From: a virus
Lineage: Duplodnaviria > Heunggongvirae > Uroviricota > Caudoviricetes
Strand: one strand, 5' to 3'
DNA length: 64,000 nucleotides
IMG/VR virus record: IMGVR_UViG_3300001605_000025
Location: 1 to 64,000 of that record
The notes under the pieces are model-generated. The model ran no database searches and was not told the origin of the DNA. It worked only from the letters and a program-made list of their open reading frames with translations. Of the stretch, positions 4,197-37,900 are shown piece by piece. Made by a program: the position numbers and the translations under genes. Each line of letters begins with the position of its first letter. Within the stretch, counting starts at the first letter, position 1.

Positions 4197-4208
4197 AGAA
4201 CGATCCTC

Positions 4209-6196: not shown

Positions 6197-6200
6197 CTTA

Positions 6201-9466: not shown

Positions 9467-9468
9467 GA

Positions 9469-11706: not shown

Positions 11707-11845
11707 TATTCTTCATCTCCTTCATATATTCATTAATACCTTTATCATATACTTCTTTACTCACTTCTTTCCACCACTTACATTCAATACAATCATCATA
11801 ACATTCATCAACCTCTTTATTTAAACAAAACCCATATCTACTCAT
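11699..11845 (-). CDS. small protein encoded by cytosine-free mRNA (gene 3, hand-translated MSRYGFCLNKEVDECYDDCIECKWWKEVSKEVYDKGINEYMKEMKNND)
   Basis: 48-aa ORF found by manual translation; overlaps stop of the upstream gene and start of the downstream gene. Confidence 0.35.
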   Translation of the reverse strand: MSRYGFCLNKEVDECYDDCIECKWWKEVSKEVYDKGINEYMKEMKNND

Positions 11846-12107
11846 TCTTAATCACCACCCAATCTTCAACCTTTAATATATCATCATTCAACATTAACTT
11901 CTCAATAACATACCCCTCTTTATTCAACATATCCTTTATTCTATATATATCCAAACACTTATTCATATATCTACTTAAATCACCAACAATATCCTTTAAT
12001 CTCTTACTCCCACCAATCCTCACACTCATAATAACCATATCACATACATTACTATAATTAACCTTCTCAACCTTACCACATAACATTCTCATACAATATA
12101 CCTCCAT
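11838..12107 (-). CDS. small protein encoded by cytosine-free mRNA (gene 2; likely true start at Met6, 12092, GGAGG SD)
   Basis: 89-aa ORF, statistically unexpected in a 3-letter sequence with ~12% stop frequency; no P/H/Q/T/A residues. Confidence 0.5.
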   Translation of the reverse strand: MEVYCMRMLCGKVEKVNYSNVCDMVIMSVRIGGSKRLKDIVGDLSRYMNKCLDIYRIKDMLNKEGYVIEKLMLNDDILKVEDWVVIKNE

Positions 12108-19738: not shown

Positions 19739-20713
19739 ATGGGACGATATGTAAAAATCTCAACTGAGACTGAATCAACATTTGGTAACGGCACTGCAAT
19801 GCTTGCTGTTGCTAAGTTCACACCAATTCGTGTGAAGAGTATATCGAACCCTGTTGATCGTGGTCTTCTGATTGAAGAGAACATTGAAGGGTATATCCCT
19901 ACTGCTGCATATGGTGGTGCTCTGAAACTTTCCGGAACACTGGAAGGTAATCTTAGACCTAAGCAGATGGAGAACTTGATTTACTCGTTAATGGGTGCAT
20001 CGGCGGCAACGGCTGCTGGGATCCTGACGGGTATAGTCTATACGATGGCGAATCCGTTAAGTATTCAGATGAAAATTGGTGAGTCAACCACAGCAGCGAC
20101 TACCGATCTGGAACTTGGCTACATGGGTGCTGCCGTTAAGACGTTCAACATGAATGTTGCTGCGAAGGAATTCGTAACTGCACGTTTCGACTGGTTCGCT
20201 AAGAACTATACAGCTGCAAGTCCGTATAGTCCTCCAGCTTCGGGAGACTATTCAGATGAAGAACCAATTGTGTTCTATAATGCTAGTGTATCATTCGATG
20301 GTGTCGACACGAGTGCTAAGATTAAGAACATGACGATAAACATCGACCGGAAAGTTGATGAGGAACGGTATGTTATCGGAGACTACACGTTGACTGAAAT
20401 TGGTATCAACGGTATGAATGAGGTTACAGGAGACATCACGTTTACAGAACATGAGTACGGTATCTTTAGACAGGCGTTATTCGGTGCAACCACTGCATCG
20501 ACACTTGGTTGCGATGATGCTGTCGGAACAGCAGCATTCTTAGCACAATTTACGGATATTGCAGTGTGTGGTGCTGAAGCAGTTAAGATGTATGTTGAGT
20601 TCGGATCGATTAAATTCGCATCTACCGACACTACAATTAATGGTCAGAACGAGATTGAGAAGAAAGTTTCATACCGTGCCGTTGGGTACTTCGGTATCGG
20701 TGTTGCTACCTAA
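19739..20713 (+). CDS. major tail protein candidate
   Basis: 324 aa with AGGAGG SD, directly upstream of chaperone + tape measure. Confidence 0.5.
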   Translation: MGRYVKISTETESTFGNGTAMLAVAKFTPIRVKSISNPVDRGLLIEENIEGYIPTAAYGGALKLSGTLEGNLRPKQMENLIYSLMGASAATAAGILTGIVYTMANPLSIQMKIGESTTAATTDLELGYMGAAVKTFNMNVAAKEFVTARFDWFAKNYTAASPYSPPASGDYSDEEPIVFYNASVSFDGVDTSAKIKNMTINIDRKVDEERYVIGDYTLTEIGINGMNEVTGDITFTEHEYGIFRQALFGATTASTLGCDDAVGTAAFLAQFTDIAVCGAEAVKMYVEFGSIKFASTDTTINGQNEIEKKVSYRAVGYFGIGVAT

Positions 20714-20734: not shown

Positions 20735-21109
20735 ATGACAACGTTAAATATTAAAACTGCAAATGGAATCTATGAGGTTCGGAAACCAGCTGGAAAGCTT
20801 GGTGCTAGAAATATGATCATCCTGTCGAAGCTGGCGAATGTTCAGCCGATAAAAGTGAATGTGGAGAATGAAGATCCAGCTTTTGTTGAAAAAGTTCGAC
20901 AGATGAATAACGCTAAACAGATGGAAGCCTTCGGGAATGTCTTCGAAGAGTGGTCTGATAAGATCTTACCAACGATTGTTGTTAAGGGACCCTTTACGTA
21001 CGAAGAGATGCCTGGAGAGGACCAGCTGGCTATATTCCTTGCGTTGACACAAGAGACTCAGGTGACGGAAGAATTCTTTCAGATCTTGCCCGCCGAGCCT
21101 AGTGTATAA
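20735..21109 (+). CDS. tail assembly chaperone candidate
   Basis: 124 aa acidic protein between major tail and tape measure genes. Confidence 0.45.
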   Translation: MTTLNIKTANGIYEVRKPAGKLGARNMIILSKLANVQPIKVNVENEDPAFVEKVRQMNNAKQMEAFGNVFEEWSDKILPTIVVKGPFTYEEMPGEDQLAIFLALTQETQVTEEFFQILPAEPSV

Positions 21110-21264
21110 CCTTGGAACATTAGCGTTCTTTACTGGGTCCCGACCCTCCGCTTTTTTCGAGTGGAACGATCCAGACGACTGGGCCGAACGACTAACGTTT
21201 GATAGTTTAGTAATGAACACTGCAATGCCAGAGCTAATAAATAAAATTATTGGAGGGGATTCCA

Positions 21265-24200
21265 ATGGCAGATCGTGAAATTATTGAGTACGAAATAGTA
21301 ATGGATGATACCCAACTAGTAGAGACGGAACGGAGAGTGAAGGAACTTCGTGGAATGCTTGAAGATGTCCGGAAAGGTGTTACTGTTAATATGACTGTAC
21401 CGGATATCGAGAAGGAACTGAAAGCTCGTGTTGCTGCTATAAATAGCTATATTAAGGGTAGTATTAAAATCGACGATATGTTCGATAGACGATTTGACAG
21501 AAATGCTGCTCGTTCTGTAGGTGATGATGTTGGTAAGCAAGTTGCAAAAGGAATGACTGAAGCAATACGAAGTGCCTTAAATAAATTCACACCTGATACT
21601 GATGTTAATCTCGAGAAGCATATTGCTGATCCCCTCCAGCAAAAGACTATTCGTGAAACGTTAACACCTAGTAAAACAAAGACATCACAACTTGTAGCAT
21701 CGAAACGTGAATCGTTAGCTAACATTAAACAGTCTATTACTGCCCTACAAAATCTAACCGCTGAACAGAAATCAGAGCTATCAAAGCGAAATAAAGAGAT
21801 CGACAGACTGTATAGTGATGAGGAACGGGCTGATAACGAGTTTATTGATCAGTTAACTGATGCTGAAGAGCGTCATGATCAAGTTATTAAAGACTTATCA
21901 GTTCAGATGAAAAAGCCACGGTCTGAACTGAAAGATGAAGGCTTCTATATTAAAGGGAAGTTCGTAAAGACTGGATTCGGATCACATAGGGACGTATTGG
22001 AACCCACACCATTAGTTACTCCAGCTAGTAAAGAGTATGGAAAAGGCATCGGAGCTCAACAGAAGATACCAGAACCAGGTCCTGTTCCGTCTAGATTACC
22101 GTCTCGTGACAGGTTTAAGACGAATGAAGAGTTTCTACTGGCGTTAAGAAAGGCCCGTGAGTTTTATATTACTCAGACGTTTAAGGAGATCTTTGGACGT
22201 GGAGCGATAGATACTAAGGCTTTAAGTAGGATGACAAAGGAGCAGCTAGCAATTACGACTAATGAGAATGCACCACGGAAGCCGAGATTAGATAAACAGA
22301 TCGAAACTGAGTTAAAGTTACTGTTTAACGATCCGAAGTATACTGTTAAGTTAAATGAGATATTAAAACAAGCTGAGACGAATGAACTTGGTGCTATACA
22401 AGAAATTAGATCTATTATAGAGTATGAACGTGGTAAAGTTGACGATATAATGCCCTATAATAGGATTAAACAGTGGAAGGATAGACTAAAGTCTACTGAA
22501 CCGGAGGATACTGGAAAACGTGAATATCATCAGGTAGTTCCGAGACATCAGGCGTATGATCCATTGTGGCACAAAAGGGCAGGACGGACAGTAGAACGTA
22601 CTGTATCAGCTGAACCGGTTGATCAGTTGACTGATAAGTTTGTGCGACAGAAAGACGTTAAGTATGATACGATATCTAAGATACAACGGAGGATGCGTGG
22701 TATTAATAAACTAGCTGATCAGTTGTATACTGTAATTCAGGACGCACAGACGTTATCACCTAAGTTTTATGCTGCACTAAATACTAGACAGCCTAAACCG
22801 ATTAGTAAGCATGCTTTATCACCAAAATTGGAAGCTATGCTAGAGGTAGAAGCTGAAAGACAGTTAGCTCCACAACGAGAAGTTCAGAGAGCTCCCGCTA
22901 CATTAGTTGCGTTTACTGGACATCGTCCAAATAAACTTGGTGGATATGATGAGACAACACAACCAGTTAGAGATATTAAAGCCGGACTAGTAGACTCTAT
23001 ACGGACTGCTATTGCCAGTGGAACGAAACATTTCATATCAGGAATGGCACTTGGTGCTGATATGTGGGCTGCAGAGGCAGTACTCGAACTTAAAAAGGAG
23101 TTCCCTGATATTAAGTTAACAGCAGCTGTTCCATTTAAAGGTCAAGAACGTCAGTGGCCTAAACCAGTACAAGAACGTTATAGTAAAATATTAAGTCAGG
23201 CTGATACTGTTAAGTATATCTCAGATGAAAAGTCAAAACTAAGTATATCTCAGATGATGCAGAAGCGTAACCAGTGGATGGTTGATCAAGCCGACAAGAT
23301 GATTGCCGTATTTAGCGGATCTGCTGGAGGAACTGCAAACACTATCAGAGCTGCTAAGAAACGTGGAATACCGGTAGAAAATGTGCTTGAAAATTTGAAA
23401 CAACCTGAACAAGCGAGAACAGAGACAGTTCGGGAGGCTAAGAAGACGTTAGGTCCTCAGTATGTTCCACCTGTTGTACCAACGACTATTGAGCAGACTG
23501 AGAAAGTTGTTAAGCCTGTCGAGAAAGCGATTCAGAAGCCGGTAACTGAAAAGCAGGTGGGTCCAGATGCGTTCGCTAAAATAGCTGATGCGATTAATAA
23601 TCAGTTGACGATCCAATCTGGACCCGGACTTACTCCTGAACAGTTAACTAAGCATATAGACTGGATGGGACTTGGAAAGGAAATTGGTACTGGGTTTGAA
23701 CCAAATCCTATTAATCTGAAACCGATTCAGGAAGCTATGGAACGGGTACTAAACGCTGAACCGCCAAAATTATTAACAGCAGGTAAACCAACTGAAGTGC
23801 CTGATAAGGTAACATTGTATCGTGGGGGAGCACGTAAGAAAGAAGATAGTGATATAGAATCTACAAGTAATTGGTTCACAGATGAGCTGGAACGTGCACG
23901 CGGATACGCAGCTATGCGGACTATGGCGTCTGAAGGAGAAAATAAAGTTCCAGCGATTAAAACAATTAGTGTTCCATCTAGTTTACTAAAAACGTTAAAA
24001 GATGTTGGGTCACATAGTCCGGGACATGAATTCCAGTTACCACCGGAAATTGCTAAACGTGCAGAAACTGCCCCAGACTTACTGAAAGGTCCGATCACTA
24101 TATATGGTAAGACACCAACAGTTAAAATGCAACAGGCTTACGATTCGTTAGTTGATAAGGTAATTCAACCAATAAAGACTGGGATTGATACATTTAATAA

Positions 24201-27200
24201 TCGATCAACTGAGATACCAGCTGAATCGGGAACGAAGTATTTCAAGAATGCCCCAAAGAGTCAACGATTTGAAGACTCATTAAGTGGACTAGATCGTAAA
24301 GAGTATATGCAAGAATCTCAAGAAGGACTTGATGCGTTACATAATGAAATGAATAATATGACCTGGGAGCAGAGTGGTGAAGTAAATAAAGTAAAAGATG
24401 TACAGAAGAAACGTCAGGACTTAATTGATTTTGTTAAGAATGCTGGTGTAAAAATTGGTCTCGATATCGATGAAACGATTCAAAGTATGAACGTGTTCTC
24501 GATTATGTTTGGTGAAGAGAGCAAGGGATTCTTAGATCCTGAATATATGAATAAGAATTACGAACAGTGGTTTGAGAAGCTAAATAAACTAAGCCCGATA
24601 TATAGTGATATACAAAAGTTCCTCGGGAATAAATCCGTACTGATAACAGCTAGACCAAATCTAGTGGGACTTCACGATAAAGCACAACAAATCGGTAAGC
24701 AGTTCGGAGCTATAGCAACGTTCGCAGTTGAGAATACGAAAGAGAAGGCTAAACTGATTAAGGAACTAGGACTAGAAACGTATTACGATGAGGATACGTT
24801 ACAAGTTACCAAATTACAGAAGGAGCTTGATGCAATAGGTGCAACGACTAAAGTTATGCAGTCTGATTTTGGTGTTGCAAGAGAGAAAGGTGAACTACCA
24901 AATGTTAAGCGTATGGCTGAACAAGCTACAGCTAAACCGGTAACTAGTCCTGTTAAGACTGAATTACCAACAGCTCCGGCACAGAAACCAACTAGGAATA
25001 CGATAGCTGATACGTTAAAGGGAATGGTAATAAACGGTGGTGCGTTAGGTGGTGCTGGACTTGGATTCCTTGGTGGGATGACACTTGGACCGTTACCTGC
25101 AGTCTTTACAGGTTGGTTAGGTGCTAACATTGGGATGTGGGTTGACCGGGTAATCAAGAGTGGTCAACTGAAACAGTCGATTGCGAATCTGTTCAATAAG
25201 ACACCAGTTGTTGAGATTCCACCTACTGTTGTTGAGAAGACAACTCAGGTTGCTACTGGAATTAGTGACGCAATGGCTGGGATGTTAGAACGTTCGACGT
25301 TCCAGGCACAGAAAGTTATACGTGATAAGTTTGCATCTGTTGATAAGAACGGCGGAACGTTAACGATTGAAGAGGCTCCTGGTGCAGAACCTGCTTATCC
25401 TGGTGCAGCTGTTCCAAATGTTCCGTATGTGAATCCTGCTCTCGTTACTAGAGTTGAAGGAAGCGTAACGGGTATAGTTACAGCAATGACTACAGCATCG
25501 AGAGATATAGCGACCGCTGGTGGAAAGGTAGCTGGACAGATACAAGTTCTTGGGATGGAGGACTTCGGAAGTCTTGGTGGTAGTATAAAGGAAGCTGCAC
25601 AGAAAGGTGTTCAAGCTGTTCAGGAGAAAATGCCACGATTAGGATCGTCTGAACGTCCATATACCGGTGGTATTCGTTGGCAGAAGTTCTTAGACGGAAC
25701 GTTGTTTACGGATCAGAAAGCTTATGAGGAAGCAGTTGCAGCGAAGATTGATGAGTCAATTAAGTTCCAGGTTGACACGCTACGTGAGATGACTGGACTA
25801 TCGTTAGAAGCAGCAACAACGTTACGAAAGGATCTAGCTGCTATAATTAAGCCATCTCGTATGAAGATGTCTACGTTAATTGGTAGAGCTAAGGCGTATA
25901 TCGAGACTAAAGGGGCAACTGGAACTACTCCTGAGGCACTGAAGGAGTTTGCAACTGGTGAGGAGAAGATATTTGAACGATCTCATCCTGCAATGAAGAA
26001 TCTAGTTCCTGAGGACGTTACACCGTATCAGAGAATGTTTGGACAGGACTACACAATTAAACTGTCATTCCTAGATTATGATGAGTTCATGGCTGCAGCT
26101 GAGACTGTAAGACAGTTACCTGGATGGACTAGTACCGCGACTAAGGAATTCGAACGGTATGGTCAGCTCGGAACTAATGTTCTACATACGATGAAAGTTA
26201 CCGGACATATACCTGGTGGAAAGGAGATTGGGGGACGGATTGAACAGGTACGGACAGCTACCGAAACGTTAGCAACTGGACCATCGGCTATAACTGAAAG
26301 AAGTCAGTTAGAGATTGGAGATAAACGACTGAACTTACAGGAACGGATGAACTTAGCTGCGATGTATCTGGATAAACTGAACTGGAAGCTTGTACGCGGA
26401 CAGATGGCTCTATTAGGTATCGCATTCTCGATGATGGGTGCAATCAAGATGATCCAGAAGGCCTGGTCGACTGTAACAACTAGTATGTCGAATCTACCTG
26501 ATATATTTAAGAATATCGGTATGGCGATGGCATTCGGACCAGCTAACGCACAGGGATTCCTACGGACTATGCTTGGATCGAGTAACCAGATTGTTGGATC
26601 CTGGAAGAAGTTCACCGGTTATACAGCAACGTTAAACTCGATGCTTGCGTACTTTGCATTCCGTTTACTACAGGATACACGTGTAATCTTTGCGATCGAT
26701 CGATTGGTAGAGAAGATTATAGGACTACTGTCCGATCAGGCATTCTTAGATAAGATCTTCGGATTAATAGCTAACATTATCGATGCGTTACCTGGTGCAG
26801 TTGATTGGATCGTTAGTATGGTAACATGGTTAATGGGAATTTTAGAGACTCCAGGGATGAAGGATGTTCTAAAATGGGCTCTCGCTATGGGATTAGCAGC
26901 TCAGTTCCTGATGACCCCGTTAGCATTGTTAGGTGGTGCCGTACAGTTCTTGGGTTGGGCAGTTAGTGCACTAGCAGCTATACTAGCAACTGTACAAGCA
27001 GGATGGACTCTACTATTGGGACAGTTAATGGGAGCGCCAGCTGCATTAACTCAGGTTGTTGCCGGAATAGCTGGTGGAATCGTTCTTGGACTAGCTGCAG
27101 TCTGGTTACTCGTTAAGATGGGAATCATCGATGCAGTAGTTAAGATCGGTGAAGAGTTCCAGAAGAACTTCCCTGATATAATGGCTATACTGAGGATAGT

Positions 27201-28389
27201 TCTATCTCCGTTAGCGTTACTTGGTGGAATAATTCTTGAACTCGTTACAACAGGAGTTCAAGTATTCTGGGATACCTTACGTATTCTATTTGATAGAGGA
27301 GCAATAGATGCTGGAATATATCTGTTACAGGGTTTACTCTATTTAGTCGGTAGGATTGCTAACGTGATAGCGACAGTTCTAGTTGGTGTCATATCATCGG
27401 TTATGCAACTAGTAGTTAAAGCTATTATCAGTAACATAGGATTGATTCCGGGTGTTGGATCATTCCTATCAGCTATGGGATGGGATGCTAAAACTATCAA
27501 TGCTGAAATTGGTAAGGTAGCTACATCATTAACGGGTGGTATTGGATCGTTAGTAGATCAGTTCTTGAGACCTGCTAGTTATGGGATCAGCTCATTACCT
27601 GGAAGAGCTAGAGGCGGAAAGGTAGTTGCTGGAACACCCGTTATCGTTGGTGAAGAAGGACCTGAGGTGTTTGTACCAAGTGGATCTGGAGATATAATTC
27701 CGAATCATATGACTGGATATGCCGACGGTACAGTTGATGCTATAAGTCTTGAGGCGTCAGCAGAGAAGATCGAGAAAGGAGGATCTGATATTGTATACGG
27801 AGCCGAGGCATATAAACGTATAATGGAAGAACACCGTTCTAAGAATTTCGATATGATGAATCGGTTAATTGGTAATGTCGATCGGATATTCTGGGATGTA
27901 TCAACGGGAACGAATCAACAGATCGGAATGACGAACCCGAACGTACCTGTTACCGGTGATAAGGATTATACACGACATAGAGAACAATTCCTAAGTGCTA
28001 GAACACAGGAAGAAGTTCGTGCTATGCCAAGTGGATTCAGCGGACGATATACTGAACTTGTTCAACCTATTGCTAGTGCTGTGACTAGTATAGCAACCGG
28101 GATACATCAATCATACAGTAGTCTAGAAGAAGTTCTAAGATTACGCAAGTCGTTATCATCTATGGGACCGTTAGCGACTCCAGTGTATCCACATCTAGCA
28201 TCTGGTGGGTTTGTTATGCAGACTGGTGCTGCGGTTGTACATAAAGGAGAACGTATAATACCTGCTGAAGAAGCTTCAGTACAATCCGTTCAGGTTACTA
28301 ACTACGTTACGGCTACCGTCAATAATAAGACTGATGAGAAGTATCTGTTAGAGTTAATGGGTAGAAAGTATTACAGTGGAGCGTATTAA
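21265..28389 (+). CDS. tail tape measure protein carrying embedded YpsA-like SLOG domain and NT5C-like HAD nucleotidase domain
   Basis: ORF track 21250 (TTG); ATG 21265 with GGAGGGG SD. N-terminal coiled coils; SLOG/YpsA-like block VAFTGHRPNKLGGY...FISGMALGADMWAAEAVLELKKEFPDIKL...MIAVFSGSAGGTANTI (~22900-23390); HAD block with motif I LDIDET, motif II VLITARP, motif III KQFG, motif IV YYDED (~24450-24800); multi-helix hydrophobic core (~26300-27500); conserved TMP C-terminal VIVGEEGPEVFVP / LASGGFVMQTGAAVVHKGERIIPAEE. Confidence 0.85.
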   Translation: MADREIIEYEIVMDDTQLVETERRVKELRGMLEDVRKGVTVNMTVPDIEKELKARVAAINSYIKGSIKIDDMFDRRFDRNAARSVGDDVGKQVAKGMTEAIRSALNKFTPDTDVNLEKHIADPLQQKTIRETLTPSKTKTSQLVASKRESLANIKQSITALQNLTAEQKSELSKRNKEIDRLYSDEERADNEFIDQLTDAEERHDQVIKDLSVQMKKPRSELKDEGFYIKGKFVKTGFGSHRDVLEPTPLVTPASKEYGKGIGAQQKIPEPGPVPSRLPSRDRFKTNEEFLLALRKAREFYITQTFKEIFGRGAIDTKALSRMTKEQLAITTNENAPRKPRLDKQIETELKLLFNDPKYTVKLNEILKQAETNELGAIQEIRSIIEYERGKVDDIMPYNRIKQWKDRLKSTEPEDTGKREYHQVVPRHQAYDPLWHKRAGRTVERTVSAEPVDQLTDKFVRQKDVKYDTISKIQRRMRGINKLADQLYTVIQDAQTLSPKFYAALNTRQPKPISKHALSPKLEAMLEVEAERQLAPQREVQRAPATLVAFTGHRPNKLGGYDETTQPVRDIKAGLVDSIRTAIASGTKHFISGMALGADMWAAEAVLELKKEFPDIKLTAAVPFKGQERQWPKPVQERYSKILSQADTVKYISDEKSKLSISQMMQKRNQWMVDQADKMIAVFSGSAGGTANTIRAAKKRGIPVENVLENLKQPEQARTETVREAKKTLGPQYVPPVVPTTIEQTEKVVKPVEKAIQKPVTEKQVGPDAFAKIADAINNQLTIQSGPGLTPEQLTKHIDWMGLGKEIGTGFEPNPINLKPIQEAMERVLNAEPPKLLTAGKPTEVPDKVTLYRGGARKKEDSDIESTSNWFTDELERARGYAAMRTMASEGENKVPAIKTISVPSSLLKTLKDVGSHSPGHEFQLPPEIAKRAETAPDLLKGPITIYGKTPTVKMQQAYDSLVDKVIQPIKTGIDTFNNRSTEIPAESGTKYFKNAPKSQRFEDSLSGLDRKEYMQESQEGLDALHNEMNNMTWEQSGEVNKVKDVQKKRQDLIDFVKNAGVKIGLDIDETIQSMNVFSIMFGEESKGFLDPEYMNKNYEQWFEKLNKLSPIYSDIQKFLGNKSVLITARPNLVGLHDKAQQIGKQFGAIATFAVENTKEKAKLIKELGLETYYDEDTLQVTKLQKELDAIGATTKVMQSDFGVAREKGELPNVKRMAEQATAKPVTSPVKTELPTAPAQKPTRNTIADTLKGMVINGGALGGAGLGFLGGMTLGPLPAVFTGWLGANIGMWVDRVIKSGQLKQSIANLFNKTPVVEIPPTVVEKTTQVATGISDAMAGMLERSTFQAQKVIRDKFASVDKNGGTLTIEEAPGAEPAYPGAAVPNVPYVNPALVTRVEGSVTGIVTAMTTASRDIATAGGKVAGQIQVLGMEDFGSLGGSIKEAAQKGVQAVQEKMPRLGSSERPYTGGIRWQKFLDGTLFTDQKAYEEAVAAKIDESIKFQVDTLREMTGLSLEAATTLRKDLAAIIKPSRMKMSTLIGRAKAYIETKGATGTTPEALKEFATGEEKIFERSHPAMKNLVPEDVTPYQRMFGQDYTIKLSFLDYDEFMAAAETVRQLPGWTSTATKEFERYGQLGTNVLHTMKVTGHIPGGKEIGGRIEQVRTATETLATGPSAITERSQLEIGDKRLNLQERMNLAAMYLDKLNWKLVRGQMALLGIAFSMMGAIKMIQKAWSTVTTSMSNLPDIFKNIGMAMAFGPANAQGFLRTMLGSSNQIVGSWKKFTGYTATLNSMLAYFAFRLLQDTRVIFAIDRLVEKIIGLLSDQAFLDKIFGLIANIIDALPGAVDWIVSMVTWLMGILETPGMKDVLKWALAMGLAAQFLMTPLALLGGAVQFLGWAVSALAAILATVQAGWTLLLGQLMGAPAALTQVVAGIAGGIVLGLAAVWLLVKMGIIDAVVKIGEEFQKNFPDIMAILRIVLSPLALLGGIILELVTTGVQVFWDTLRILFDRGAIDAGIYLLQGLLYLVGRIANVIATVLVGVISSVMQLVVKAIISNIGLIPGVGSFLSAMGWDAKTINAEIGKVATSLTGGIGSLVDQFLRPASYGISSLPGRARGGKVVAGTPVIVGEEGPEVFVPSGSGDIIPNHMTGYADGTVDAISLEASAEKIEKGGSDIVYGAEAYKRIMEEHRSKNFDMMNRLIGNVDRIFWDVSTGTNQQIGMTNPNVPVTGDKDYTRHREQFLSARTQEEVRAMPSGFSGRYTELVQPIASAVTSIATGIHQSYSSLEEVLRLRKSLSSMGPLATPVYPHLASGGFVMQTGAAVVHKGERIIPAEEASVQSVQVTNYVTATVNNKTDEKYLLELMGRKYYSGAY

Positions 28390-28391
28390 TC

Positions 28392-29333
28392 ATGCCTCTA
28401 GCGATAACAAGAAGGATTAAGACTGGTGGATCGTTAGTAGATGCTGATCTAGTAGCTGCAACGTTTGATCCGAAACGGGTAACGTTGATACGTAAGATGA
28501 ATTCGGTCTTGACACCAATTCCTGGTGAGCAACATTTCGGGATGCCTATGGGTCCGGAAGCAGTAGAGTTTAGTGTTAATTTTTTGTGGGATCAATCTAA
28601 CTGCCCATGTCCCGGAAGAACATTTGCACAATCATTGAAACAGTGGACCTGTAATTCGATATATGCCGCTACACCATACGGTTCGTTAGTTAATGATATT
28701 GCGACCGCCCACTATATAGCTAAAACGATTACGTATGATCGAAAAGCTCCAGGTGTGAAAGGAGTTAAGAATGGTAGCTGTACGCTGTATCCGGTTTGGA
28801 ATGTAACAATGAACTTAATGAAATTGAGAGATTCAGATGTTACGGACTGTCCAACGTTTACCGATTATACGATTAGTAATTCGTACAGTGGGTCGAGTCT
28901 TACACCGTTCCTTGAAATGACTAATGTACTGGATGATTCTGATATTACTGTACAACCGTCAACAATAAAAGTTGCACATACTGGACAGCCTCAAGCTTTT
29001 GCGTTATATGATGAGGAAGCACTAAGTATATTACCACCGTTAGGTAACGTAGGACCGGTTATCGATATTGAGTTCCGAGCTAGTAATGCTGATTTTGAAC
29101 TTATAAAAGGATGGGCTGCCACACGAACAACTGTTGTATCAACTGATCAATGTCAGTATGACGAATTTGATATTGATAACGCTCCGTCTTACTATAGTAG
29201 ATGGATAGTAAGTGGTTATAGTTGGGATCGTGATGTTGGATCGGGAGGTCAGTATACAGCTACTGGTAAAGTGACTAGGCGTATAGCGATGTCGCTAACA
29301 CGTTATTGGGGATATGAATTACTGGAGGTGTAA
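28392..29333 (+). CDS. distal tail protein (Dit) candidate
   Basis: 313 aa immediately after TMP. Confidence 0.45.
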   Translation: MPLAITRRIKTGGSLVDADLVAATFDPKRVTLIRKMNSVLTPIPGEQHFGMPMGPEAVEFSVNFLWDQSNCPCPGRTFAQSLKQWTCNSIYAATPYGSLVNDIATAHYIAKTITYDRKAPGVKGVKNGSCTLYPVWNVTMNLMKLRDSDVTDCPTFTDYTISNSYSGSSLTPFLEMTNVLDDSDITVQPSTIKVAHTGQPQAFALYDEEALSILPPLGNVGPVIDIEFRASNADFELIKGWAATRTTVVSTDQCQYDEFDIDNAPSYYSRWIVSGYSWDRDVGSGGQYTATGKVTRRIAMSLTRYWGYELLEV

Positions 29334-29336
29334 AAT

Positions 29337-31298
29337 ATGCCGTGGATACTATATGAAGTACTTGCTGCTGCTACGCATAATGTGATAGATTCATCAAGAG
29401 CAATAGTATCATGTGATTTACAGAAACTGAATGAAGCAAGAGTGATTTGTTCACACTCTAACGTTAGTGGTCCAGTTGATAATGATACTGAAGTTCAGAT
29501 TATTGATCAAGTTGTTGATCCGGTAACTAAGTTGGTTACCGAGGAGCATGTACTGATACATGGATATGTAGAAAAGTATGCTCAGATGACTAAAGGAGCT
29601 ATTAATAGTACATACGAGTATACGATAAAGGAACTTGCTGGTGAACTAGAGAAGTATCGTGTACACGTAACGGGAACGTCTAACTATATCGTAACGTGTC
29701 CTGCTCAGAATACTAGTGCTTATGCAGCATCCATTTTAGTTGAAACAACGTGGAGTGCTGCGACAGCTATGACCAATTATTTAGTTGATGCATTACAGTT
29801 TCGTTACATGACTGCTTTAGCTGGACTTAATAAAATAGTCTCACAACTATCTGCGGCGACGGCTGCGACACCACTTTATATGTGGTTTGATAGTGATCTA
29901 AAGACGGTCGGCTGGGGGACCTCTAGGAACGATAGGACGTCTGTGAACTTTATCAAAGGACTGTATTACGATTATAAGGAAGAAAAGACAATCCGTAACC
30001 AGGTAAATGGTGTTGTTATATTTGGTGCTAATAGCGCGTATAGTGGCCAGTATCCAGCTGTTCCGACTGGACACAATCTAGCGGTATATCAGTATGACGA
30101 TGCGAATACTGATGCGGAATGTGAACAGATAGCAACTGCTGTATACTTGACGTGGTGTAATGATCCGAAACGACGTATCCAATTTAAGGTAAGACCTATA
30201 GATACGAAAGTTGCTGGAAGCTACGTATTAGAGGGTGATCGTATACAGGTCGATGGTGTTAACTATACGGTTATCGACATGACGTATACACCGAAAGATA
30301 TACTGATAGGTGTAAATGCTGGAGAGGACTCTGTTCTGTATAGTCTTGGTGATAAACTGAAACCAGTAGCCGGAACAGCTAGTGGAGCACTTAATCAGAG
30401 TTGGGATCCAGGAACACAGAATGTTAGTAGTGACGGAACTACTAAGACAGTCTTTACGTATCAGCTAGCTGATAATACGAAGCTTGGAGATGATTGGTTA
30501 CTAGACTGTACAATTGGAACGTATAAGGCTCAGTCCTATCAGGTTACGGCAGCTGTTGCTAATGAGTTGTTAAGTAATGTACTAGTTCCGTCTAGTTTCG
30601 ATGGACTTAGCTATCCAGGTGATCTGTGGAATGCAGCGACTACCTACTTACCATTCACATCTGGTACTCCTGAACTAGTTGCTGGTTCTGAGATCGAGAA
30701 CGGATTTGAATATGCATTCGCAACTGTATCGTTTACGACTGAACCTATATTAGCAACTGTTGATATTGGATACTTATATGTAACATGTGAATATAATTAT
30801 ACAGGAGCCACTACTGGATGGTTTGAAGGAACGTTCCAGCAGAAATGGAGAATCCCAACTGGTCCAGATGGAGAACGTACATTCTGTACGAATACGTATT
30901 TGATCCCTGGAACTGCGAATACGTGTCAGCCGCATGTTAGATGGAAGTGTCTAGCTGAGATTGGTGTTAATGATGTTGCTGCTGGTGTACATTATTATTT
31001 ACGGAATATTAGTTGTATGTTAGATGTTATACCGAGACATACTCATGACTGGCAACAGACTGGTGTGACGAATGCGAATGAACTGTTAGCTCCACAGACT
31101 GATGATGTTACTGAAGTGGAGACCACACCACCAGCATCGGTAACTGTGTACGTTAATGGAACAAATTTAGGATCGTTAACACCCGGAGTACCGAAGGATA
31201 TTAAATCATATCTAATTGATGGGATTAATGATATATCGTTTACATCGGATACTGTATGTACCGTCACACCATCTGGTAAGTTTATAATGTACGGGTGA
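29337..31298 (+). CDS. tail-associated (Tal)/baseplate hub candidate
   Basis: 653 aa after Dit; GGAGG SD. Confidence 0.45.
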   Translation: MPWILYEVLAAATHNVIDSSRAIVSCDLQKLNEARVICSHSNVSGPVDNDTEVQIIDQVVDPVTKLVTEEHVLIHGYVEKYAQMTKGAINSTYEYTIKELAGELEKYRVHVTGTSNYIVTCPAQNTSAYAASILVETTWSAATAMTNYLVDALQFRYMTALAGLNKIVSQLSAATAATPLYMWFDSDLKTVGWGTSRNDRTSVNFIKGLYYDYKEEKTIRNQVNGVVIFGANSAYSGQYPAVPTGHNLAVYQYDDANTDAECEQIATAVYLTWCNDPKRRIQFKVRPIDTKVAGSYVLEGDRIQVDGVNYTVIDMTYTPKDILIGVNAGEDSVLYSLGDKLKPVAGTASGALNQSWDPGTQNVSSDGTTKTVFTYQLADNTKLGDDWLLDCTIGTYKAQSYQVTAAVANELLSNVLVPSSFDGLSYPGDLWNAATTYLPFTSGTPELVAGSEIENGFEYAFATVSFTTEPILATVDIGYLYVTCEYNYTGATTGWFEGTFQQKWRIPTGPDGERTFCTNTYLIPGTANTCQPHVRWKCLAEIGVNDVAAGVHYYLRNISCMLDVIPRHTHDWQQTGVTNANELLAPQTDDVTEVETTPPASVTVYVNGTNLGSLTPGVPKDIKSYLIDGINDISFTSDTVCTVTPSGKFIMYG

Positions 31299-31762
31299 TA
31301 GTAATGACGTTTCAGAATGGTGATTTTGAAACTGGAGATCTGACGGGATGGACAGATAATAGTTCTGGTGCAGGATCAGCTTCTGTGACAACTGGAGCTA
31401 AATATAGTGGAACGTATGGATGTAGTTTGTTAATGTCATCTAATAGTGAAGGAACGATGGATGGTCAGGCATCGATTAGTCAAGACTTTGATACCAACTT
31501 CATCAGTATTAGTATGAAACATAAAGTGGCACAATTCGATGAAAGTCCAGGGATGGTTGGGTTTCGTGTGTATGTATCTGTACACGATGCTTCACATGCT
31601 GTAACGAATCTCTGGATATATGGGGGTTGGATATGGAGTACGTCGGACTGGGAAACGATGTCGTTCACGAAAGCTGAAATCGAGGCGATGTTTCCGTCCG
31701 GGTACCACTGGAACGAAAGTGGAGTGTCAACACTGATGATTAACCAGTTCGTGCTAGCTTAA
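31295..31762 (+). CDS. baseplate/tail accessory protein
   Basis: 155 aa, overlapping start. Confidence 0.3.
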   Translation: MIVMTFQNGDFETGDLTGWTDNSSGAGSASVTTGAKYSGTYGCSLLMSSNSEGTMDGQASISQDFDTNFISISMKHKVAQFDESPGMVGFRVYVSVHDASHAVTNLWIYGGWIWSTSDWETMSFTKAEIEAMFPSGYHWNESGVSTLMINQFVLA

Positions 31763-31777
31763 TAAGAGGTAGGATAC

Positions 31778-33175
31778 ATGACAATCTATTATAACGAGAG
31801 TTACGTCGATGATATAGAGATTGAGTATCCGTTATCACCTATTATAGAGGTTAGCTTAACGTATCGTGTTAAACGAACTGGTTTAATAACAACAGATCTC
31901 AGGTACGACATATGTCATGTTATCCAGAAAACTTTAGAGTATCGTTTTACACGAACAGTAACACTTAGCCGACCGTTAGTAGAGTGGATACCATCATCTG
32001 CGACTATTAACTATAACGATCAGGGAACATATACAGTTAACAATCTGTATGGTAGTAATAATAATGCGTATGCAAAGTTTAACGTTAATACGGTACCAAG
32101 TAGAACGTTACCGTGGACACTCCAGTATGATTACGGGTATGGTGGACAGAAGCAGGTAACCCGATATGTGATGCACTATCCGAATGGATTCACTGGTAGT
32201 GATATATTTCCGAAGTCGTGGGTATTTGAAGGATCTTTAAACGGAACAACTTGGACAGCGTTAGATACGCAGACTAGTCAGACATTTAGTGTGACACGCA
32301 CTATTGATTTCGTAAACAATAAGGCCTACCGTTACTATCGTCTGAGAGTTACCGAACATTGGAGTCCAGCGTCACCTAAAGATCTATATATAGGTAGAGT
32401 AAAGCTTTACGATCAAGGTAGTACGTTACTTGAATATGCTATATATACGGCATCACTAGAAGCAGATACGTATGCTGGAGTTGCTCCAATAAACGTTACG
32501 TTTACCATTACGGATGAAAGTTTACCAAGTCTACCTAGATATCATTGGGATTTCGGAGATGGAACATCTGGATATAGTACAACACCAACAGCACGGAAAC
32601 AATACCTAAATGCTGGTACGTTTACGGTATCTGTTAGTGTCCCTAATCTAGAGTATCTACCTGTCGCATCGGTAGTAGTAACAATTACTGAAAGGCCAGC
32701 TGGACCACATGCAATGTTCTTTGCAAATCCAGTTATGGGAATCGCACCGTTGAATGTTCAGTTTGAGAACATTAGTGTGTATACTGGAGCCGTAACATGG
32801 GACTGGAATTTCGGAGACGGAACAGATCATTCAGCAGAAAAGAATCCGTTACATACGTATACTGGAGGTGCCACATACAACGTATCGTTAACGGTTACAG
32901 ATAGTGATGGGAATGATACGTTAACTCGGGTAAATTATATACATGGATCAGTTGTTCCGCCATCTGCTAACTTCGAGATTGCTAGTGGAAATGCAACGGT
33001 AACATATGGTGAGGGAATATGGGTGGAACTTAAGGTAACCGATAGTTTAGGGAATACCAGTTCTATCACTATGAACGTACTTCTAGATGATGAAGAAGAT
33101 AGATTCATAGAGTTTAGAAATACATCTACTGGTGATATAGTAGAGTGTAGATGGACATATGGTGATCTATCGTGA
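31778..33175 (+). CDS. tail fibre/baseplate protein with two PKD domains
   Basis: HWDFGDGTSGYST...TFTVSVSV and WDWNFGDGTDHSAEKNPLHTYTGGATYNVSLTVTDSDGN match the PKD-domain WxFGDG signature; N-terminal region resembles a jelly-roll carbohydrate-binding module. Confidence 0.55.
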   Translation: MTIYYNESYVDDIEIEYPLSPIIEVSLTYRVKRTGLITTDLRYDICHVIQKTLEYRFTRTVTLSRPLVEWIPSSATINYNDQGTYTVNNLYGSNNNAYAKFNVNTVPSRTLPWTLQYDYGYGGQKQVTRYVMHYPNGFTGSDIFPKSWVFEGSLNGTTWTALDTQTSQTFSVTRTIDFVNNKAYRYYRLRVTEHWSPASPKDLYIGRVKLYDQGSTLLEYAIYTASLEADTYAGVAPINVTFTITDESLPSLPRYHWDFGDGTSGYSTTPTARKQYLNAGTFTVSVSVPNLEYLPVASVVVTITERPAGPHAMFFANPVMGIAPLNVQFENISVYTGAVTWDWNFGDGTDHSAEKNPLHTYTGGATYNVSLTVTDSDGNDTLTRVNYIHGSVVPPSANFEIASGNATVTYGEGIWVELKVTDSLGNTSSITMNVLLDDEEDRFIEFRNTSTGDIVECRWTYGDLS

Positions 33176-34668: not shown

Positions 34669-34953
34669 ATGGCATTAGATACGTCAGCTGTTAAGATCAC
34701 ACCTGCTGAAGTGAAATCGTTAGTAGCGTCTTATATGTTAGCAGAAACTAAGACACCTACACAGATGAAAGAGTTGATCAGTTCGTATGAAGTTAAGTGT
34801 GAACGGATTGATAGTATGATTAATGATCCAATGATACCAGCAGAACTTAAAAAAGATCTAAAGGATAAGAAGCTTCGGATACTTAAGAAGTATATGGTAC
34901 TACAAGAACATGATAAAAACATATCTATTAAGCCCGTAGAAGAGGTTAAGTAA
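34669..34953 (+). CDS. hypothetical protein
   Basis: 94 aa. Confidence 0.3.
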   Translation: MALDTSAVKITPAEVKSLVASYMLAETKTPTQMKELISSYEVKCERIDSMINDPMIPAELKKDLKDKKLRILKKYMVLQEHDKNISIKPVEEVK

Positions 34954-36437
34954 TGGCATATTACTACGTAGACTATACGAATGGTTCGGACTCTCGTACC
35001 GGATTACGTATACCTGCGGGTGACCATGATTCGGTATCTTATTATACAATCGATTCTACTGCAGATACGACACATTTTGTTGATTCAGCGTTAACTGGAG
35101 CAAACGACTACATTAACGGTGGGTACGTCTATAATGTTACACGGTCGATTGGAGCTGTAGTATCTGATTTTGATGCTGCAACTGATACGGTTACGCTAGC
35201 AACGGCAATTGCTGGAATGACTGCTGGTGACTCCTATTATATACTGAACTCGTTTAAGAATATCTCACAGTTTACAACTGCTGGATCAGCTAGAAGTCCA
35301 GGTGATAAATGTTACGTTAGAGCGAATCAGACACACAATCTAGCTTCTACATCACTAGGATTTGATGAGGATGGATCAGTAAGTGCGTTTATTTATCTGA
35401 TAGGTTGTAACGCGACTCAAGGTGTTGATCCGTATCATGATGGATCTGATGTTAGGCCGACGTTAGACTTTGGTGCTACAACAGCATACGTGCAGATATC
35501 AGGAGATTACTGGTGGTATATCCAGAATCTAGATGTTAGGGGATCAACTAGTTCTAATGGTAATATATCTCTTACTGCTGCAATTGGGACTGTTATTGAT
35601 AACTGTATGTCTAGAGATGGTGGAGCGAGCACAACTGGAATTAGAACTAGTATGACTAGAGGTATTTGGTTGATGAATTGTGTTGTCGCGAAGTGCCCGT
35701 ACTATGGAATGTATCTAATGGAGTCATATGTAGTTGTAACTAGATGTGTAATAGATGCAAATGCATCTGGGTCTTCGTATGGTATAGCTACACGTGGATC
35801 AGAAGTAATAGTTAATAATTGTATAATTGGAGCATCAACACCGTTTCTTACTGATATACACTTTAGTTATTCACATGTACTAGTTGGTAATTCTACATTA
35901 AGTAGTTCAGTTAAACTAGTTACGTTACCTGATTACGTGTTTGGTACAGGATCAACTGAGGATTATCTCGGAGTATATGGAAGTTTCTATCGCAAAGTTA
36001 GTTGTCTTGGGGTAACTAATTCAACAGCAGTTACTAGACCAGGTGGAGCATCATCAACTGTTGTTATGCAACCGTATATAACAATGTGGTATAAGAGTCC
36101 GATTAGTATAAACAATTCGATAATAAATCCAGATTTCCGTGTGTGGTCATCTGCTAACGAAAGAACGATTACCGTTTACATACGTGGGTTTAATTGGGCG
36201 TCGTTTCCGACTGCTGAACAACTATATATAAAAGCGGAATATATTTCAGCTGCTAGCCCACTAACATATAGTTCTGCTGTATCGACACAAGTACTAACAG
36301 ATAATACAACATGGGTAGCCTTTCGGGTTACTGTTACACCAGTTGTTGCGTCATTCATTAATATATGGGTTCAACTTGGACAGTTCGAAGATACATCAAC
36401 TGGTATATACGTTGATCCGAAGTTGGTGGTATCATGA
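34953..36437 (+). CDS. receptor-binding protein / tailspike paralogue 1 (parallel beta-helix)
   Basis: 494 aa; N-terminal ~170 aa closely similar to next gene (YY(V/I)DY(T/V)NG..TGL...TVDSTADTTH..D(S/A)ALTG...TL(A/G)TAIAGM(T/A)AGDSYY...ISQFTTAG..RS(P/A)GDKCY(V/I)RANQTH...FDEDGS...YIYLIGCN); middle has beta-helix-like repeats. Confidence 0.55.
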   Translation: MAYYYVDYTNGSDSRTGLRIPAGDHDSVSYYTIDSTADTTHFVDSALTGANDYINGGYVYNVTRSIGAVVSDFDAATDTVTLATAIAGMTAGDSYYILNSFKNISQFTTAGSARSPGDKCYVRANQTHNLASTSLGFDEDGSVSAFIYLIGCNATQGVDPYHDGSDVRPTLDFGATTAYVQISGDYWWYIQNLDVRGSTSSNGNISLTAAIGTVIDNCMSRDGGASTTGIRTSMTRGIWLMNCVVAKCPYYGMYLMESYVVVTRCVIDANASGSSYGIATRGSEVIVNNCIIGASTPFLTDIHFSYSHVLVGNSTLSSSVKLVTLPDYVFGTGSTEDYLGVYGSFYRKVSCLGVTNSTAVTRPGGASSTVVMQPYITMWYKSPISINNSIINPDFRVWSSANERTITVYIRGFNWASFPTAEQLYIKAEYISAASPLTYSSAVSTQVLTDNTTWVAFRVTVTPVVASFINIWVQLGQFEDTSTGIYVDPKLVVS

Positions 36438-37900
36438 CCGATTACTATATTGATTACGTTAACGGACTAAATACGAATACCGGATTACAATATAATCCGT
36501 TAACAGTTGATTCGACAGCTGATACGACACACTTAACAGATGCAGCACTCACCGGTATGACTATTGGAAACGGATCATTTGTTTGGAATGTAACACGAGG
36601 AGCTGGTGCTACAACACTAGCGTGGGATGATGGAACTGATACGTTAACACTTGGAACTGCGATTGCTGGTATGGCTGCGGGAGATTCATATTATCTGATT
36701 ACACCGTATAAAACGATATCTCAGTTCACGACAGCTGGTGGTGTACGATCTGCGGGTGATAAGTGTTATATTAGAGCAAACCAGACTCATGACTGTTCAG
36801 CTGCTAATATAGAGTTTGATGAAGATGGATCGTCTGTTGATTATATTTATCTAATTGGTTGTAACGTAAGTCAGGGTATTGATCCATGGCATGATAATTC
36901 TGATGTTAGACCCATAATAGATTTTAAGAATAGCTCAACATACTATATGTATTTGTATACTGATTATTGGTGGTATATTAAGAATTTAGACTTTACATCA
37001 ATCTATAGATCGTCTGCTGAAGCTGGAATATTATCAACTTGGGTAGTTCTTGGATTATATATTGACAATTGTCAGTTCCATAATGCTACAGGAACAGCAG
37101 CATATGCATTAAATCTAGCACGAGCAGGATGTGTTACTGTACATAATTGTGGGTTTTATTCTAATACAGGACCTGGATTATTTACAAATGAAAGTTGGGG
37201 AATTATAGAAGGATGCACATTCTCTAGTAGTGGTACTGGAACAGGTACTGGAGCAGCTTTCCGAGGAAGTGAATATATTGTAAAAGATTCAGTTTTTGGA
37301 TCACCAACTACATTTGCATATGATATACAGTCTGGGTACGGAGCGAATGTAATTCTGAGAAACTGTACAGTTAACTATAGTAAGTTTACCATTCCTGCAT
37401 TTTCATGGGGATCAATAGCAGTTGAAGATTATAATGGTGTATACGGAGATAAGTATCTAAAGACAGCTCGGGCAGTAATTACTAGTTCGACTGCTGTTAT
37501 ACGGGAAGGTGGATCACCAGAGTCTGCTTATTTAGTAGCAACATCATCTGATGTTGGTCAATATGATGCAGTAGGACTACATGATTCTATCGAACCAGAT
37601 TTTAAGATTTGGTGTACTGATACTACAACAGTTACTATTTATATGAGAGGAGCGGGATGGAGTTCCTTCCCAGTGACAACATACGACCTGTATATTACAG
37701 CTGAATATATATCTGCGACTAATCCATTAGATTATGAGTATGAGTATTCATCACAGGAATTATCTGATAATACTACATGGGTAGGTTATCAAGTTACGTT
37801 TACACCTGCTACTCCCTCGTACGTAGGAATATATGTATGTTTAGCACGGTACGTAGCTAGCACAGGTGTCTATATAGATATAGAACCAGTTATAACTTGA
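36434..37900 (+). CDS. receptor-binding protein / tailspike paralogue 2
   Basis: 488 aa; tandem duplicate of 34953-36437 with diverged C-terminal half. Confidence 0.55.
   Translation: MTDYYIDYVNGLNTNTGLQYNPLTVDSTADTTHLTDAALTGMTIGNGSFVWNVTRGAGATTLAWDDGTDTLTLGTAIAGMAAGDSYYLITPYKTISQFTTAGGVRSAGDKCYIRANQTHDCSAANIEFDEDGSSVDYIYLIGCNVSQGIDPWHDNSDVRPIIDFKNSSTYYMYLYTDYWWYIKNLDFTSIYRSSAEAGILSTWVVLGLYIDNCQFHNATGTAAYALNLARAGCVTVHNCGFYSNTGPGLFTNESWGIIEGCTFSSSGTGTGTGAAFRGSEYIVKDSVFGSPTTFAYDIQSGYGANVILRNCTVNYSKFTIPAFSWGSIAVEDYNGVYGDKYLKTARAVITSSTAVIREGGSPESAYLVATSSDVGQYDAVGLHDSIEPDFKIWCTDTTTVTIYMRGAGWSSFPVTTYDLYITAEYISATNPLDYEYEYSSQELSDNTTWVGYQVTFTPATPSYVGIYVCLARYVASTGVYIDIEPVIT

Follow-up and report, generated by a model that had tools for sequence, protein, structure and literature searches.

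Analysis of a 64,000-nucleotide (nt) stretch of tailed-phage DNA (Caudoviricetes; positions 1 to 64,000 of IMG/VR record IMGVR_UViG_3300001605_000025, hereafter referred to as the window) revealed a tape measure protein (TMP) of 2374 amino acids (aa) that carries a complete SLOG domain of the YoqJ/YpsA type in its N-terminal quarter. The fusion is apparently unique. We propose, tentatively and with somewhat less than even confidence, that this TMP brings a ligand-competent SLOG domain across the host envelope, to its cytoplasmic face, as the phage enters. The segments of the TMP referred to below are listed here; L001 is the only full-length relative found for the core of the protein.

21265-28389, + strand: TMP open reading frame (ORF), 2374 aa and stop codon (identical in at least five assemblies; synteny)
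21265-22896, + strand: N-terminal charged region, residues 1-544 (from sequence), with a Pro-rich linker at about residues 245-290
22897-23439, + strand: complete YoqJ/YpsA-type SLOG domain, residues 545-725 (Pfam, PDB, AlphaFold)
22912-22929, + strand: SLOG motif FTGHRP
23041-23061, + strand: SLOG motif GMALGAD (GxD)
23440-23634, + strand: Pro/Lys/Glu/Gln/Thr-rich linker, residues 726-790 (these five amino acids constitute 51% of residues 706-790)
23635-24426, + strand: orphan region, residues 791-1054 (no homologue)
24427-24879, + strand: conserved module of about 150 aa, residues 1055-1205, with G-L-D-I-D-E-T, LITARP, ENTKEKAK and YYDED, Rossmann-like beta-alpha-beta (homology to L001)
24880-25020, + strand: Pro-rich linker, residues 1206-1252
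25021-25152, + strand: Gly-rich hydrophobic segment, residues 1253-1296 (similar segment in the L001 TMP)
25765-28389, + strand: TMP core conserved with L001, residues 1501-2374 (BLASTP, 28% identity, E=3e-52; hydropathy; PHROG)
about 26377-27474, + strand: multi-helix hydrophobic block in the TMP core (hydropathy)
27649-27666, + strand: C-terminal motif GEEGPE
28204-28251, + strand: C-terminal motif GGFV...HKGE

The embedded SLOG domain

Residues 548-693 match the Pfam family YpsA (PF06908) at E=4.5e-32 (111.8 bits, against a curated cutoff of 27.7), and phmmer aligned the domain with YpsA of Bacillus subtilis (PDB 2nx2) at E=8e-20 and 26% identity. An AlphaFold2 model calculated from a 35-sequence alignment (this domain and 34 family proteins) reached a predicted local distance difference test score (pLDDT) of 94.8. 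The top Foldseek match of this model was 2nx2 (TM-score 0.82, root-mean-square deviation 1.9 Å, E=9e-15), followed by ShosA and, at ranks 3-11, by DprA structures, including a complex with single-stranded DNA (ssDNA), all with TM-scores of about 0.6. Secondary, weaker sequence matches were likewise to DprA, in Pfam (DNA_processg_A, E=1.4e-7 to 5e-9) and in NCBIfam (TIGR00732). A first-pass annotation of this DNA, made from the letters and their translations, had placed a YpsA-family SLOG domain at about 22900-23390 of the TMP gene, and these matches confirm it.

The domain covers the full length of the stand-alone proteins of the family (about 170 aa) and retains all 16 columns that are invariant in the 35-sequence alignment (TGHR, F..GM..G.D, A.P, W, R...M and GT). 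The GxD/E motif of YpsA (G53/E55), predicted to form part of the ligand site (PMC6459960), is kept as G-A-D at residues 596-598. Judged from these residues, nothing of the predicted nucleotide-ligand site has been lost in the captured domain. Linkers rich in Pro, Lys, Glu, Gln and Thr flank it within the TMP. A recent insertion of compositionally foreign DNA was ruled out by the GC content, which is 0.416 for the SLOG segment and 0.421 for the whole TMP gene. Because the domain is full-length, has kept its invariant residues and shows the GC content of the surrounding gene, it represents an old and maintained in-frame insertion of an entire yoqJ-type gene.

Overproduction of B. subtilis YpsA causes filamentation, for which G42, E44, W45, G53, E55 and W87 are required, and the phage homologue YoqJ lacks several of these residues (PMC6459960). 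The TMP domain has kept G42, G53 and W87, has Asp in place of E55, and carries Lys and His at the positions of E44 and W45. On the basis of the latter two replacements, and since phage YoqJ also lacks such residues, the domain is a YoqJ-clade SLOG and not a YpsA orthologue. It thus shares with B. subtilis YpsA the fold, the GxD/E motif and the W87 equivalent, but neither E44/W45 nor a gpsB neighbourhood, being internal to a phage tail gene. The likeness to YpsA as an inhibitor of FtsZ-dependent division, which the first-pass annotation had raised, is therefore weak. An injected domain that acts like overproduced YpsA and blocks FtsZ ring assembly at entry would agree with the family membership, with 2nx2 as the best structural match and with the filamentation phenotype. 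Nevertheless, we regard it as very improbable: E44 and W45 are both changed, the closest relatives among the best 120 matches are YoqJ-like proteins and not gpsB-linked YpsA, and the few TMP copies brought in per infection would presumably remain far below overexpression.

Integrity of the tape measure ORF

Translation of the window gave a single uninterrupted ORF at 21265-28389 (+ strand; 2374 codons and a stop, 7125 nt), with a Shine-Dalgarno-like sequence, GGAGGGG, located a few bases 5′ of its ATG codon. An exact-protein look-up found the 2374-aa product also in Logan (SRR943323, SRR636569 and SRR943325) and in ENA (ERZ27315067). At the DNA level the ORF is identical, without a single mismatch, in at least five independent assemblies (7125 nt compared, or 5529 nt in the case of one cut contig). 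All of the segments listed above are therefore encoded in one uninterrupted ORF, as had been supposed. The longest contigs that carry the TMP gene are about 74.9 kb, and the window therefore represents most of one phage genome. No near-identical DNA was found by megablast in the INPHARED phage collection.

A JGI/IMG protein call of the same 90% cluster (P0001), found on two contigs of which the longer is 74,884 bp, comprises 1530 aa that correspond to TMP residues 845-2374. Since it starts with Val (V845) from an internal GTG codon, it is probably a 5′-partial call at a contig end and not the product of a split or broken gene. The concern raised by this call, that the ORF might be divided in some assemblies, is probably unfounded, as the gene is intact in all assemblies retrieved.

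Identity of the tape measure protein and the tail module

The TMP gene lies within a module whose order is typical of tailed phages: terminase-like and capsid genes are followed by three small ORFs of connector size, the tail tube gene, a 124-aa ORF, the TMP gene, and genes for a 313-aa, a 653-aa, a CBM-like, a PKD-domain and beta-helix proteins. The TMP gene is thus preceded by tube and chaperone-position genes and followed by genes of the distal tail and tip, as expected. The flanking features are:

19739-20713, + strand: tail tube protein (Pfam Phage_tube_2, PF18906, E=1.6e-16; PHROG tail family)
20735-21109, + strand: 124-aa ORF in the position of a tail assembly chaperone (position only)
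28392-33175, + strand: tail-tip/receptor-binding genes (313 aa, 653 aa, CBM-like 155 aa and PKD-domain 465 aa)

Hydropathy windows exceed 1.6 across residues 1871-2069, a densely hydrophobic block of several helices; residues 1253-1296 form a Gly-rich hydrophobic segment. The C-terminal GGKVVAGTPVIVGEEGPEVFVP region matches PHROG families of TMPs, among them phrog_8892 (“tail length tape measure protein”, E=0.0017), and tblastn aligned it with annotated TMPs of cyanophage KBS-S-2A (E=4e-7) and Methylophilaceae phage P19250A (E=3e-4). Similarity to recognised TMPs is confined to this C-terminal motif region, and none of the TMP families of Pfam matched the ORF. The hydrophobic block, the matches of the GEEGPE region and the expected gene order together identify the 2374-aa ORF as the tape measure protein of this phage, in agreement with the original assignment.

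A siphovirus-like virion is probable, since the interval from the capsid genes to the tube gene contains no ORF of sheath size. The 124-aa ORF had no family match in Pfam and PHROG searches. Three-frame translation showed an open stretch of about 65 codons (21066-21270, + strand), in the +1 frame relative to this ORF, that overlaps its end and stops at the start of the TMP gene. This recalls the G/GT frameshift of tail chaperones, but in the +1 (or -2) frame; it is a candidate only, and no slippery site was identified. Further downstream there are PKD/F5_F8 type C and CBM_4_9-like proteins (31295-33175) and two consecutive beta-helix proteins of 494 and 488 aa (34953-37900, + strand), all of which are likely tail spikes, depolymerases or receptor-binding proteins.

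Rarity of the SLOG-TMP fusion

About 300 homologue contexts, i.e. proteins, genome loci, phage records and IMG/VR loci, were inspected, and no other fusion of a SLOG domain with a TMP was found among them. The best 120 protein matches in a collection of 5.8 billion sequences, which include the closest relatives, are all stand-alone proteins of 160-305 aa with at most 53% identity, named “phage-like protein YoqJ” or “SLOG family protein”. The best 80 of 579 confirmed loci in bacterial and archaeal contigs (one genome per species) are stop-to-stop ORFs of 158-237 codons, and three of the four IMG/VR loci found are ORFs of 172-303 aa at most. In the roughly 100 of 236 phage records listed, the domain is encoded by a separate gene, annotated as DUF1273, “GTP-binding domain” or “DprA-like ssDNA binding protein”, and often adjoining genes for helicases or RuvC-like resolvases. 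Stand-alone phage and prophage YoqJ proteins (DUF1273), such as that of SPbeta, share the full domain and the invariant residues with the TMP domain, but they are products of separate genes that are usually located in replication or early regions, whereas here the domain is internal to a tail protein.

A published survey of viral NAD+/ADP-ribose domains names HTH, HNH, exonuclease, helicase, guanylate kinase, Macro, NADAR and DUF4326 domains as fusion partners of SLOGs, with no TMP among them (PMC9503650). A full-text literature search combining tape measure protein with SLOG or DUF1273 did not retrieve a description of the fusion. That this domain combination had gone undescribed, as the first-pass annotation supposed, thus agrees with both the literature and the homologue survey. 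The fusion can be viewed as a variant of two known themes, namely enzyme-bearing TMPs and stand-alone SLOG proteins of phages.

The company kept by the phage homologues bears on what we consider the main rival explanation. In this scenario the SLOG domain would act like its relative DprA and be a pilot of the DNA end: it would bind the leading (single-stranded or cohesive) genome end beside the N-terminal part of the TMP and escort it, protect it, or pass it to recombination and repair proteins. The N-terminus of the TMP is the head-proximal and DNA-proximal end in the siphoviruses that have been studied, and the SLOG domain lies in the N-terminal quarter of the protein. The secondary DprA matches, the DprA structures at Foldseek ranks 3-11 with their ssDNA complex, and the ssDNA-binding labels of phage homologues next to resolvases and helicases all speak for such a function. 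We nevertheless consider it unlikely, because the domain is far nearer to YpsA (TM 0.82) than to DprA (TM about 0.6) and because the “DprA-like” labels are annotations based on homology and not on experiment. In addition, small nucleotides are the predicted ligands of the YpsA clade (PMC6459960), and the GxD/E site at which they would bind is kept here.

The 150-aa module and its resemblance to HAD phosphatases

Besides the SLOG domain, the first-pass annotation had described a HAD domain of the 5′-nucleotidase (NT5C) type in the module at residues 1055-1205. The four strings on which this rested are present (LDIDET at 24460-24477, LITARP at 24640-24657, IGKQFG at 24691-24708 and YYDED at 24781-24795), and the module is conserved: its Smith-Waterman score against residues 1211-1333 of the L001 TMP is 66, compared with 32.4±5.5 for shuffled sequences (0 of 2000 reach 66), and BLASTP of the two segments gave E=0.001. 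Both have G-x-D-x-D-E-T, the S/T-x-R position, the octapeptide ENTKEKAK (identical in the two) and an Asp further downstream. Motif I of HAD proteins (DxDx[TV], terminating a hydrophobic strand) reads GLDIDET in the window and GYDWDET in L001. In view of the homology to L001 and the shared motifs, residues 1055-1205 constitute a real conserved domain, apparently of alpha/beta type, with a HAD-like first motif.

The assignment to HAD or NT5C was not borne out by any profile. A significant HAD profile match had been set beforehand as the test, and none was obtained for the module in Pfam (E limit 10), in NCBIfam (E limit 1) or among PDB chains (sequence and profile searches, E up to 10). Its only sub-threshold Pfam match was ADH_zinc_N, an NAD-type Rossmann beta-alpha-beta segment (residues 1141-1183, E=0.002). 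An exhaustive phmmer search of 1.84 billion representative proteins with residues 741-1260 returned only the protein itself, and nothing was found with this segment in a word-indexed search, by tblastn against phages or in IMG/VR pattern scans. The AlphaFold model of the module, for which no alignment was possible and which was therefore calculated from the single sequence, has a pLDDT of 48.

Profiles were also constructed from 12 phage PNKP 3′-phosphatase domains and 10 phage NT5C proteins collected by tblastn. The PNKP seed was validated (100% match), and the NT5M seed retrieved only phage genes annotated as 5′-nucleotidases. As hidden Markov models (HMMs; HMMER), neither profile matched the window TMP or the L001 TMP. 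When compared by hhalign, they placed motifs I and II of the module in register, with scores of 17.35 (NT5C, probability 0.9%) and 17.1 (PNKP, probability about 1%), whereas column-shuffled controls gave 11.6±2.0 (1 of 150 reached 17). Since NT5C scored 18.7 against the unrelated SLOG profile and 40.6 (probability 85%) against PNKP, i.e. between two true HAD families, the HAD signal of the module is no stronger than generic similarity between Rossmannoid families. Motif I alone arises in 2.6% of shuffled TMPs, and a regular expression for all four motifs, written after the sequence had been seen, matched 2 of 3000. Membership of the NT5C family (PF06941) is not supported by the Pfam, HMM and hhalign results. 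Compared with HAD phosphatases such as NT5C and the T4 PNKP 3′-phosphatase, the module thus has a DxDxT-like motif, a Ser/Thr-x-Arg, a Lys-rich helix and an acidic strand in the right order, but no profile or structural support, its scores being at the level of cross-Rossmannoid noise. In the model proposed below it is a second conserved cargo module of Rossmannoid type, and it may be a HAD-like phosphatase.

These results also bear on the idea of an injected SLOG and NT5C-like HAD pair that would degrade a second messenger in two steps or remodel deoxynucleoside monophosphate pools, by glycosidic cleavage followed by dephosphorylation. The order and spacing of the four strings, which were matched post hoc in so few shuffles, the motif residues shared with L001 and the in-register hhalign alignment are compatible with it. 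We judge it to be distinctly unlikely, given the silence of all HAD profiles at permissive thresholds, an hhalign probability of about 1% with a score below that of NT5C against SLOG, the NAD-type character of the sole Pfam match and the uninformative structural model. Moreover, L001 has the module without a SLOG domain, and the two are therefore not an obligate pair.

A conserved core, probably preceded by variable modules

Searches with the TMP core yielded a single relative of full length, L001 (retrieved also as L006), along with the short fragments L008 and L009. The L001 TMP (2573 aa; IMGVR_UViG_3300032156_000026, 4160-11881) can be aligned with the window TMP from about residue 1500 to the C-terminus. 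Before this point the two proteins share only the 150-aa module and the Gly-rich hydrophobic segment, and these occur in differing order. No SLOG domain was found in the L001 TMP; at about residue 1483 it contains an exact JAMM/MPN metalloprotease signature, HSHPEENAIISPDD (HxHx7Sx2D), in a region with a sub-threshold Prok-JAB match (E=0.025).

The remaining N-terminal part of the window TMP has few recognisable features. Residues 1-544 have no detectable homologue and only noise-level Pfam matches, and residues 791-1054 were without a match in the 1.84 billion representative proteins, the phage collection, Pfam and PDB. Within the latter, residues 851-925 (23815-24040, + strand; LYRGG...STSNWF...GHEFQLP) superficially resemble the R-S-E signature of ADP-ribosyltransferases (ARTs). 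In known ARTs the Arg is separated from the Ser-Thr-Ser by roughly 35 aa or more. An ART at residues 850-925 was rejected, as R853 and S866 are only 13 aa apart, there is no ExE/QxE motif and neither Pfam nor PDB gave a match.

The differences from L001 and the Pro-rich linkers of the window TMP suggest that the protein consists of a conserved core preceded by a variable region of strung-together modules. The N-terminal 1250 or so residues would then be a lineage-variable “cargo” region, in which orphan stretches and globular modules are carried on Pro/Lys-rich linkers. The JAMM-like motif that L001 has instead of a SLOG domain points to swappable cargo.

Proposed delivery of the SLOG domain

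At infection, the TMP that fills a siphovirus tail tube exits before the DNA and inserts in the envelope, and some TMPs carry peptidoglycan-cleaving domains (PMC6116005). Viral SLOGs, which belong mainly to the YpsA-like clade, have been predicted, although not shown, to bind or cleave immune signals derived from ADP-ribose, and domains that process NAD or ADP-ribose (ADPr) are frequently carried in the virion so that they can act early (PMC9503650). Viral SLOGs have been placed in the same NAD+/ADPr-processing network (PMC9503650, PMC7824862). The suggestion of the first-pass annotation, an injected module that would degrade Thoeris or CBASS signals, agrees with this prediction as far as viral YpsA-like SLOGs in general are concerned. 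TMP-related scaffolds with exchangeable functional domains form the ejected cargo of actinobacterial contractile injection systems (PMC13277306).

We infer from this background that the SLOG domain enters the cell, where it would meet its ligand and counter host defence. Upon adsorption the TMP would leave the tail tube before the DNA does, and its core (residues 1501-2374), which has a tip-proximal motif of the GEEGPE type and whose hydrophobic block presumably inserts in the membrane, would form or line a channel through the envelope. The N-terminal cargo would exit last, beside the DNA end, and reach the cytoplasmic side, where the SLOG domain could fold or refold and bind or cleave a small nucleotide-derived molecule. 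If one follows the prediction published for YpsA-like SLOGs of viruses, the most likely candidate would be a defence signal derived from NAD+ or ADP-ribose. The activity would thus be present before any phage gene is expressed.

Several known systems resemble this arrangement in part. The TMPs of mycobacteriophage TM4 (Rpf-like motif), T5 (pb2) and phiIPLA35 (muramidase) likewise combine a ruler with an enzyme domain released at infection (PMC6116005), but their domains cut the peptidoglycan of the envelope, whereas the domain described here is a nucleotide-binding Rossmannoid of an intracellular family. Virion-packaged NAD+/ADPr-processing and polyvalent proteins (Macro, NADAR, Nudix and ARTs; T4 Alt) embody a similar concept, an effector that acts against nucleotide-based defence before expression (PMC9503650, PMC7824862); they are packaged in the head or stand alone, while the SLOG domain is inside the TMP. 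Sle1-type TMP-related effectors of actinobacterial contractile injection systems also have a TMP-like scaffold with an exchangeable domain that is loaded in the tail tube and ejected (PMC13277306). They differ in not being phage proteins and in that their functional domains are C-terminal and unrelated to SLOG.

Several observations weigh against delivery of an active domain. The chief physical objection is space. The lumen of a tail tube is about 4 nm wide, and a folded Rossmannoid domain of about 20 kDa, present in several TMP copies, fits poorly in it. Delivery therefore needs the domain to be unfolded or staggered in the virion. The fusion was seen in one phage lineage only, and hence neither covariation nor recurrence argues for selection. 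In cultured phages, SLOG genes of this kind usually belong to replication or recombination modules, with DprA-like ssDNA-binding protein as their annotation; this annotation and the ShosA and DprA structural neighbours favour a DNA-related role equally well. Finally, no Macro, NADAR or Nudix partner was found among the ORFs scanned.

The lumen limit also leaves room for an explanation in which the inserted domains are structural or assembly passengers with no role in the target cell, i.e. tolerated spacers that lengthen the ruler, docking sites for chaperones, or a neutral fusion. Restriction of the fusion to one lineage and the lack of conservation in the N-terminal halves of related TMPs would be in keeping with such a role, as would the difficulty of housing folded enzymes in the virion. 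A pure spacer, however, would be expected to degenerate, whereas the invariant ligand-site residues of the SLOG domain are all kept and its predicted fold is very confident. An internal in-frame insertion also requires two precise junctions, and the composition of the segment has been ameliorated to match the TMP gene. Passenger status is thus, in our opinion, quite improbable.

A broader and more doubtful reading can also be considered, which we rate as possible though rather unlikely. The giant TMPs of this lineage might be polyvalent injection vehicles, in which a channel core is joined to swappable cytoplasm-directed modules that are threaded unfolded, refold in the host and disarm defences, based on nucleotide signals or otherwise, before the genome arrives. 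The modules would be the SLOG domain and the DxDxT Rossmannoid in the window TMP, and the same Rossmannoid together with a JAMM-like domain in L001. This would constitute a route of anti-defence delivery distinct from that of head-packaged proteins.

Host range and other genes of the window

The nearest SLOG relatives among the matches listed come from genomes of Bacillota and Clostridia and from gut and soil metagenomes, while the weak matches of the TMP motif and the terminase are to phages that infect Gram-negative bacteria or cyanobacteria. A Firmicute host should therefore not be taken for granted.

Several gene blocks outside the tail module were recorded. At 44784-46816 (- strand) a gene for a FolE2-type GTP cyclohydrolase I (44784-45665, E=4e-32) is followed by one for a radical-SAM protein similar in size to QueE (45738-46385) and by a 144-aa ORF. 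Together they resemble a pathway for 7-deazaguanine (preQ0/queuosine type), which would point to modified phage DNA. A nucleotide-metabolism block (49031-55161, - strand) contains genes for a ribonucleotide reductase with a TSCPD domain (49031-50950, - strand), a thymidylate-synthase-like protein of which only the C-terminal half of the profile was matched (50947-51603, - strand; possibly a deoxynucleoside monophosphate hydroxymethylase), a PD-(D/E)XK/Cas4-like nuclease (52426-53184, - strand) and a dCTP deaminase-like protein (54110-54670, - strand). A protein of the SPFH/Band 7 family is encoded at 901-1800 (- strand, E=6e-24).

A Ro60/TROVE and vWA protein is encoded at 61973-63496 (- strand, E=2e-30). 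About 450 nt upstream of its gene lies a match to a tRNA model (63953-64000, 34.5 bits) that is cut by the end of the window; ARAGORN predicted no tRNA. The element may represent either a tRNA or, as a partner of the Ro60 homologue, a tRNA-like Y-RNA of the YrlA type.

Implications

Should the SLOG domain be inert, the fusion would be a mere oddity of one uncultivated phage. If it does enter the cell with the TMP, the lumen of a siphovirus tail can deliver effectors directed to the cytoplasm, beyond enzymes that cut the cell wall. The phage would then offer a natural test case both for what phage YoqJ/DUF1273 SLOGs bind or cleave and for how a tail tube houses folded domains and lets them thread through. 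The arrangement also suggests a design principle for engineered phages that would carry protein cargo in their tape measure. In this sense the SLOG-TMP fusion provides a concrete, testable case of cytoplasm-directed TMP cargo.

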